A stretch of 63,509 bases of DNA, counting the filler, from Collodictyon triciliatum (taxonomy: Eukaryota), in the NCBI GenBank assembly GCA_043381765.1. It is 9 parts of 9 records of this genome, joined end to end, with 100 filler letters (N's around TTAATTAATTAA, not from the genome) between each part and the next. Parts side by side here need not be neighbours in the genome. Positions count along the whole stretch, not along the records: positions 48,348 to 57,701 come from JBHJMP010004232.1; 8 more parts are not named here. The stretch is one strand, 5' to 3'. A program made the position numbers and the translations under genes. This document shows positions 49,750-50,404 of this stretch, piece by piece. Numbering within the stretch: the stretch's first letter is position 1; every line of letters starts with the position of its first letter. The notes under the pieces are model-generated. The model was not told the origin of the DNA. It made no database searches and saw only the letters and a list, made by a program, of their open reading frames with translations.

Positions 49750-50404
49750 ATGAAGGTCAAGATCAAAAGTGGGTCGCATACATACATATACACACATGAA
49801 CATGAACATATCTCATGCGTATATCATCGAGCTCTTTTGTGATGAGCAAACGTGAAACAACTCAGGGTAAGCGGCTTCACACACAACCCACATCCTTCTC
49901 TGGCAACATCAAGTCGCACAAGATAAGCCCCCGGAGCCGTTTCTTTAGCTTCTGTGAACGCAGCACAGCAGACGGCAAACGGGGTTGAGCAATCACGGCT
50001 GGCTGCAGAGCACATGCTCGCCACCAATGATTAACTCTCCACAACACACAAGAGCTCATCATTAAACAAGCCAATCACCAATTATCTAGTTGGACAGCAG
50101 TCGCCAATTGGAAGTGGAAGGTAAATGACGATGTCTGTGGCATCTGCCGAAACCGAATGGACAGCTGCTGCTCGACCTCCTGCAAGTTTCCTGGCGATGA
50201 CTGCGCCATAGGTTTGCAAGATGGAGTCGCCAAAAACAGACTCATTTTAAGACCTGCTGCATAATGAGTCACACACAAACACTCAAACACATACAATCTG
50301 CAGAGTTTGGCCCGTGCAACCACTCGTTCCATCTCCACTGCATCCAAAAGAGTCTGCAACACAAGGACACATGCCCGACCTGCCGCCGAAAGTGGGCCGC
50401 GTAA
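49750..50404 (+). CDS. APC11: Anaphase-promoting complex subunit 11 (RING-H2); exons 49750-49768, 49866 (1 nt), 50090-50211, 50304-50404
   Basis: MKVKIKSWTAVANWKWKVNDDVCGICRNRMDSCCSTSCKFPGDDCAIEFGPCNHSFHLHCIQKSLQHKDTCPTCRRKWAA*. 'MKVKI..W.AVA.W.W', 'CKFPGDDC' and 'CNHSFHLHCI' are APC11 signatures. Confidence 0.93.

Follow-up and report, generated by a model that had tools for sequence, protein, structure and literature searches.

In a 63,509-nucleotide stretch of the Collodictyon triciliatum assembly GCA_043381765.1 (hereafter the window), the RING-H2 gene APC11 lies on the + strand at 49750-50404 in three large coding exons, and the first two of these lose the reading frame when joined directly at their canonical splice sites. 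We conclude that this feature is real and that it is most likely due to an exon of a single nucleotide, G49866, placed between two canonical introns that would be removed sequentially. As a non-plant APC11 gene with this arrangement in that codon, it is a new case of a very rare kind already known from land plants. Complementary DNA (cDNA) contigs that cross the junction and two related loci from metagenomes support this conclusion, and plant protein records place the known plant exon, indirectly, in the same codon.

The APC11 gene and its cDNA

The gene was assigned to APC11 by matches to the Pfam family PF12861 (zf-ANAPC11) of 32.8 bits in exon 2 and 31.4 bits in exon 3, against a cut-off of 25, together with the N-terminal strand MKVKIK-x-W. 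Coding exon 1 (49750-49768, 19 nucleotides, nt) opens with the ATG at 49750, encodes MKVKIK and the first base of codon 7, and ends in phase 1 at 49768/49769 (ATC AAA A|GTGGGT); no ATG is found upstream of it in 49534-49749. Exon 2 (50090-50211, 122 nt) starts CTAG|T TGG ACA GCA GTC, which needs phase 2, and comprises one T, the codons for WTAVANW...DDCAI with the first half of the RING-H2 domain, and a final G. It is followed by the phase-1 intron C (50212-50303, 92 nt, GTTTGC...TGCAG) and by the coding part of exon 3 (50304-50404), which reads E-FGPCNHSFHLHC...RKWAA, also matches zf-rbx1 (39.6 bits) and closes with the stop codon TAA at 50402-50404. The 3' untranslated region (UTR) occupies 50405-50443; AATAAA lies at 50422-50427, and poly(A) addition takes place at 50443.

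The apparent intron between exons 1 and 2 is 321 nt long and holds only one AG-N-GT, at CTCAG|G|GTAAGC (49864-49872 from the AG to the end of the donor). Its use would divide the stretch into intron A (49769-49865, 97 nt, GTGGGT...CTCAG, acceptor AG at 49864-49865), the proposed exon G49866 as the middle base of codon 7, and intron B (49867-50089, 223 nt, GTAAGC...ATCTAG, donor GTAAGC at 49867-49872). The exon ends, the acceptor, the single G and the donor given in the initial annotation were all recovered at the same coordinates, and direct joining of exons 1 and 2 at their GT-AG sites did break the frame as it had stated, with a stop after 17 amino acids. Its further statement that no GT-AG solution exists proved wrong in silico: an exhaustive listing of GT/GC-AG pairs yielded one in-frame pair, the donor tgg|GTCGCA at 49773-49778 with the acceptor at 50089, which would produce the junction AAAAGTGGTTGG and a protein starting MKVKIKSGW, one residue longer.

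Transcripts were sought in the assembled contigs of four RNA runs, with X1 and X2 belonging to one study and X3 to a second (a freshwater metatranscriptome). X1 and X2 yielded one contig each, running from the 5'UTR through the whole APC11 gene, and these are the two contigs that span the first junction. Both join 49767 to 50088 with no letters between, at a joint that slides by 3, so that introns A and B are missing and 320 nt are skipped, versus 321 for the canonical join. The canonical direct join (321) and the donor at 49773 (317) are therefore both excluded in the cDNA contigs. The mature mRNA is one base longer than the canonical join and its frame is restored. Its spliced product carries AAAAGTTGG (MKVKIK-S-W) and equals, letter for letter, the product of the one-nucleotide exon: 243 nt and 80 amino acids, uninterrupted by a stop, with the N-terminus MKVKIKSWTAVANW. 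The mature junction that had been predicted from the genomic sequence, ATCAAAAGTTGGACA, is the one present in X1 and X2. A matching intronic base stands between AG and GT, and its use leaves two canonical introns of 97 and 223 nt. The 92-nt GT..AG joint between exons 2 and 3 is present in X1, X2 and X3, and X3 covers only that junction. The fourth run, X4, showed no cover of the gene, and no contig extends over intron A or intron B; neither result counts for or against the exon. At 50443, 16 nt past AATAAA, the genomic part of the X1 contig gives way to 23 untemplated A, and a loose end on another X1 contig resembles what we take to be a template-switch oligo; the contigs are therefore cDNA.

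The same layout in two related loci

A metagenome scan with an APC11 alignment returned 39 loci. A close relative of the window gene was found neither there (best identity 65%) nor by a protein word search with exon 2, which gave 8 matches of at most 62% identity. The N-terminus is uninterrupted in most of the metagenome loci, 29 of which read M-K-x-x-x-x-X-W with a single residue separating position 6 from Trp8. Four more are contiguous with a shorter N-terminus (L019, L020, L022 and L025) and one is contiguous without the Trp (L035), while one is cut by a contig end (L033) and one has its intron elsewhere (L037). A single canonical phase-1 intron occupies the same site in L034 (AAA A|GTAAGT...TAG|GG); this locus (L034:349-430) is an AT-rich, animal-like APC11 with the intron in codon 7 and Ile, not Trp, at position 8 (ATC). 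The remaining two, L001 and L002, have the same layout as the window gene.

L001 and L002 were the top two matches (65% identity to exon 2 of the window), are GC-rich and come from independent metagenome assemblies. Exon 1 is again 19 nt long and ends in phase 1 (ATG...ATCAAAC|GT), the internal site reads CAG|G|GTGCGC, and the first bases of exon 2 are G TGG (L001) or A TGG (L002), so that codon 7 would be CGG or CGA and the predicted protein would start MKVKIK-R-WTAVAVW. The sub-introns would be 92 and 92 nt long in L001 and 89 and 92 nt in L002; the third intron of L001 is 85 nt long, and the last intron of both loci has the position and phase found in the window. An AG-N-GT is thus conserved in relatives belonging to a lineage other than that of the window. 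Between the two loci, exons 1 and 2 are identical at 134 of 138 positions and the intronic stretch at 129 of 192 columns (67%), and the longest identical intronic run, the 13-mer CAGGGTGCGCTGG, encloses the proposed exon, the second longest being a 12-mer at the exon-2 acceptor. By manual count, CTAAC lies 39-44 nt upstream of all three L001 acceptors. The database proteins P0138 and P0139 are read-through open reading frames (ORFs) of the L001/L002 lineage. A canonical G-beta gene adjoins L002.

The host of the window had been regarded as a non-plant organism, and its nearest named relative agrees with this. The ORF of its eIF3d gene has as its best match, by a wide margin, a Diphylleia rotans protein of EukProt (46% identity, E = 5e-56), followed by Physarum (30%, E = 2e-16). 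Judged by this similarity, the window organism is not a plant but a protist close to Diphyllatea/CRuMs, or else some unsampled neighbour; that the best eIF3d relative reaches only 46% shows how thinly the lineage is sampled.

A probable one-base exon and its alternatives

Under the one-nucleotide exon, codon 7 (AGT, the Ser just before the conserved Trp) would be built from three exons, A49768, G49866 and T50090, and the single G would be flanked by two ordinary GT-AG introns. An exon of one base would be beyond exon definition, and the factors binding its 3' and 5' splice sites would overlap on the G; the introns would thus most likely be removed one by one through intron definition, in a recursive-like manner. 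Were intron A removed first, the resulting junction AAAAG|GTAAGC would form a strong new donor for the second step. We infer both that G49866 is the base actually used and that introns A and B leave sequentially.

Several observations weigh against this interpretation. The key junction comes from assembled contigs of two runs in one study, and such contigs cannot reveal rare isoforms or splicing intermediates. The inserted G matches both the base that opens intron A (GT) and the one that closes intron B (AG), so that the same mRNA could equally be made by a late donor cut (TG..AG) or an early acceptor cut (GT..TA). L001 and L002 are known from DNA alone and, as such, are supporting evidence, not independent proof. 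They also hold extra AG-N-GT sites: L001 has two, with sub-introns 31 and 14 nt long, and L002 has one (31 nt). Many single-intron alternatives that add residues can be drawn for them in silico as well. Branch-site motifs showed no consistent pattern over 9 window introns and were uninformative. Finally, the internal motif was measured against chance by simulating the 321-nt stretch 20,000 times under a first-order Markov model and scoring motifs at least 40 nt from either end, and AG-G-GT alone arose in 10% of the simulated window introns. The corresponding frequencies were 0.059 for YAG-G-GT and 0.012 for YAG-G-GTNNG; AG-G-GT and YAG-G-GTNNG arose at 0.031 and 0.004 in L001, and at 0.041 and 0.006 in L002. 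By itself the internal motif is only mildly unlikely, and the weight comes from the cDNA and the two related loci. A coincidence across two independent lineages is unlikely, though possible.

The explanation that competes best is a single non-canonical intron of 320 nt (TG..AG or GT..TA, cut one base off), with the internal AGGGTAAGC as mere coincidence. We consider it improbable, though it is the most serious of the alternatives. Since the joint slides by 3, the TG..AG and GT..TA placements fit the cDNA as well as the one-nucleotide exon does, and all three loci (window, L001 and L002) have G as the inserted base, as one odd intron would need; the frequency of AG-G-GT in the simulations also speaks for it. 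Yet the four possible placements of such an intron are AG..CT, GT..TA, TG..AG and GG..GT, none of which is GT-AG, GC-AG or AT-AC, and GT-AG borders were seen in 7 of the 7 other window introns examined. These are the 92-nt APC11 intron and six in the eIF3d gene (17519-15079, - strand), which has at least 6 introns of 120-186 nt; the six were located with the help of P0012, the best database relative of this gene, and their donors are GTATGT, GTACGG, GTAACT, GTCTGC, GTAAGC and GTGATC. Furthermore, canonical GTNNG donors at phase 1 and AG acceptors at exon 2 are present in all three APC11 loci, and the coincidence would have to recur in a second lineage, in whose introns nothing is better conserved than the AG-G-GT block. 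The G at the first donor position and the G at the last acceptor position are near-absolute requirements of the spliceosome. Nor does the sequence resemble the nonconventional introns of euglenids, whose ends are brought together by pairing and lack GT-AG borders: in the minimum-free-energy fold the two ends of the 321-nt stretch are not paired with each other (z = -1.9, with 4 of 100 shuffles folding equally well). In the predicted fold, at 49769-49880, the donor region of intron A, GUGGGUCGC, pairs just 3' of G49866, an arrangement that would place the first donor beside the one-base exon; this fold is weak (z = -1.9) and was given no weight.

A one-base assembly error beside a splice site, for instance a G missing at the acceptor, would let a single canonical intron yield the same mRNA, and we hold this to be very unlikely. 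The window sequence is a scaffold with an N run from 50716, and its intronic bases are beyond the reach of a check by cDNA. Against such an error, the contigs carry no inserted or deleted letters beside the 320-nt joint, and the phase mismatch and the internal AG-G-GT recur in the independent assemblies L001 and L002. Use of the donor at 49773 with the acceptor at 50089 is the least credible alternative, although the pair is in frame and GT-AG and the donors of this organism are so loosely defined that consensus alone would not exclude GTCGCA, because the skip in both cDNA contigs measures 320 nt rather than 317, and 29 of the 39 metagenome loci have precisely one residue to separate Trp8 from position 6; as a minor isoform it could lie beneath what contigs reveal. 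The one-nucleotide exon between two canonical introns thus remains the reading that we favour.

Comparison with plant APC11 and other one-base exons

In Arabidopsis, APC11 (At3g05870) has a one-nucleotide exon, the base A, lying within the intron that separates the first two annotated exons and proven by substitution and deletion mutagenesis (Guo & Liu 2015, PMC4674806). According to passages of a later survey, land plants have conserved it, the intronless genes of monocots lack it, and it 'evolved in early plants' (Yu et al. 2022, PMC8831610). The codon in which the plant exon lies is not stated in the available portions of the main texts of PMC4674806, PMC8831610, PMC8650582 and PMC12409088. 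It can be approached through protein records, and we classified by a script rule the 120 plant APC11 proteins (P0017-P0136) listed by a search with L004, an intronless monocot-like ORF.

Among these listed matches, 13 of 120 have the canonical N-terminus MKVKILxW, 98 have a non-APC11-like N-terminus that joins at Trp8 or one residue before it (including two read-through cases, P0037 and P0055), 3 have MKVKIL plus extra residues, and the motif searched for is absent from 6. Read by eye, P0031, P0035, P0037, P0055 and P0116 show MKVK[IL]L-R-[IF], as read-through of C|GT would give. In the intronless monocot-like loci codon 7 is CAG, which fits C | A | G with the A exon of PMC4674806. From the read-through records and the CAG codon, the plant exon is therefore placed in codon 7: exon 1 would end after the first base of that codon, and exon 2 would consist of its third base followed by the Trp8 codon. 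These records are good indirect evidence that the plant exon lies in the same codon as in the window gene and, as there, behind an exon 1 of 19 nt. The initial annotation had put the plant exon in the codon just before the conserved Trp; this is thereby backed, indirectly, and intron positions agree with those of other APC11 genes, in full layout for L001 and L002 and, indirectly, in codon for plants. A decade after the Arabidopsis report, most of the listed plant APC11 records (98 of 120, versus 13 canonical) are still without an APC11-like N-terminus.

The window and plant genes are thus alike in being the same gene with three large exons, a known or proposed one-nucleotide exon between the first two and two GT-AG introns. 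By the indirect evidence above they would also share codon 7, a 19-nt phase-1 exon 1 and an exon 2 that starts with one base plus TGG. The plant exon has been missed by gene finders. They differ in that the exon base is A in Arabidopsis and G in the window, so that the window mRNA alone is not diagnostic; in that the Arabidopsis exon was proven by mutagenesis whereas that of the window is read from sequence and cDNA; and in that the host of the window is a non-plant protist near Diphyllatea/CRuMs.

Other ultra-short exons offer further comparisons. The consulted sections of Nelson & Syed (2026, PMC12940212) describe a one-nucleotide exon, with transcript reads in support, in the CYP621A P450 genes of Fusarium. 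It shares with the window the AGGGT form, the base G and the way in which it was inferred, from a phase-1/phase-2 mismatch within a length-constrained motif, and it differs in belonging to an unrelated fungal gene with no link to APC11. As given in parts of PMC8831610, plant VPS55 has a 1-nt microexon, likewise an ultra-short constitutive coding exon with canonical introns that annotation had missed, in another gene. Recursive splice sites, the zero-nucleotide ratchet points of Drosophila and vertebrates cited in PMC4674806, resemble the window gene in that 3' and 5' splice sites adjoin within an apparent long intron, stepwise removal is expected, and the first step would remake a donor (AAAAG|GTAAGC). 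They differ in that the window retains one coding base and has short introns of 97 and 223 nt; the site is thus not a juxtaposed AG|GT, since one coding base stands between the two, and it may act similarly. In the literature searched, nuclear one-nucleotide exons were found only in plant APC11, VPS55 and Fusarium CYP621A, with no APC11 case outside plants.

Leader sequences at the 5' ends and other features of the window

Both APC11 cDNA contigs open with non-genomic letters whose last 10 bases are identical, and each leader meets the genome at an AG. In X1 the leader is 22 letters long and precedes 49532, the candidate distal spliced-leader acceptor (AG at 49532-49533, + strand), which has a clear pyrimidine tract upstream and directly after which the 5'UTR of X1 begins. 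In X2 the same ending lies behind letters close to the leader's own reverse complement, a pattern known from contigs that are head-to-head chimeras, and precedes 49697, the candidate proximal acceptor (AG at 49697-49698, + strand). The pattern resembles trans-splicing of a spliced leader to either of two acceptors on APC11. No copy of the leader occurs within the window, and no paper in the literature searched substantively ties a spliced leader to Diphylleia, Collodictyon, Rigifila, Mantamonas or CRuMs.

Elsewhere in the window, an uninterrupted ORF of 920 amino acids at 30898-33660 (- strand) has Pfam matches to leucine-rich repeats, to a SAM domain and, at the C-terminus, to a U-box, an unusual architecture for an E3 ligase. 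Rfam matches in the window are limited to two tRNA genes of 84-85 nt on the + strand, about 1.6 kb apart, at 28608-28692 (60.0 bits) and 30256-30339 (60.1 bits). ARAGORN identified one of them as tRNA-Thr (tgt) and left the other without an assignment, and their length suggests tRNA introns. Perfect microsatellites (AAAAC, AAAG, AAAGAT, AAGAG and CATTTT) occupy 41229-41348, 41449-41542, 45768-45882, 48153-48247 and 48348-48455, and a less regular A-rich repeat (87% matches) at 50555-50713 ends at the scaffold gap right after APC11.

Evolution of the proposed one-base exon

Of the best 150 matches to exon 2 of L001, 120 were classified. Among the non-plant-like sequences, 15 are contiguous at the N-terminus. 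In a further 17, unrelated upstream sequence is followed by R or S before Trp8, as expected of read-through from a phase-2 acceptor (AG+N). In 16 more, unrelated upstream sequence is followed by another residue; in 10 of these it is G, as expected of read-through from a phase-1 acceptor and then GT/GC. P0196 and P0233 pass in frame from M-R-V-K-I-K-K-Y to R-W, as a single tiny phase-2 intron would produce. The read-through or odd N-termini of P0142, P0144, P0147, P0196, P0233 and P0225 suggest phase-2 acceptors directly before Trp8 in several non-plant lineages. The flag 'LOW QUALITY PROTEIN' is attached to the APC11 records of Nematostella vectensis (P0225) and pear (P0039), and might reflect a one-nucleotide exon that could not be aligned.

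Phase-1 introns alone, phase-2 introns alone, both together and no intron thus all seem, from these predicted N-termini and gene structures, to occur at codon 7 of APC11. Two accounts fit, both unproven: an ancestral double intron with differential loss, or an old intron at which the loss of one base was repeatedly rescued through a cryptic AGGGT. The latter route is the one put forward for Fusarium in the available portions of PMC12940212. The first account, in which phase-1 and phase-2 introns in codon 7, and hence the one-nucleotide exon, were ancestral to a very large part of the eukaryotes, before plants separated from CRuMs/Amorphea, is a tentative one that we think somewhat doubtful. 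Were it correct, the loss products would be the genes with phase 1 only (L034 and the 'G|W' read-through group), with phase 2 only (P0196 and P0233) and without introns (fungi and monocots), and selection would have kept an exon of one base for more than 1 billion years.

The gene models of the essential APC11 are likely to be wrong in many genomes, as the small share of canonical records among the listed plant proteins indicates. Together with L001 and L002, the gene described here would provide non-plant systems in which to study how the spliceosome copes when an exon is below the size that exon definition requires. The finding would also push back, or duplicate, the origin in early plants that passages of Yu et al. 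(PMC8831610) assign to this exon. The choice between ancient retention and repeated frameshift rescue can now be tested through APC11 gene structures; the smallest possible exon would be either very old or have arisen more than once.
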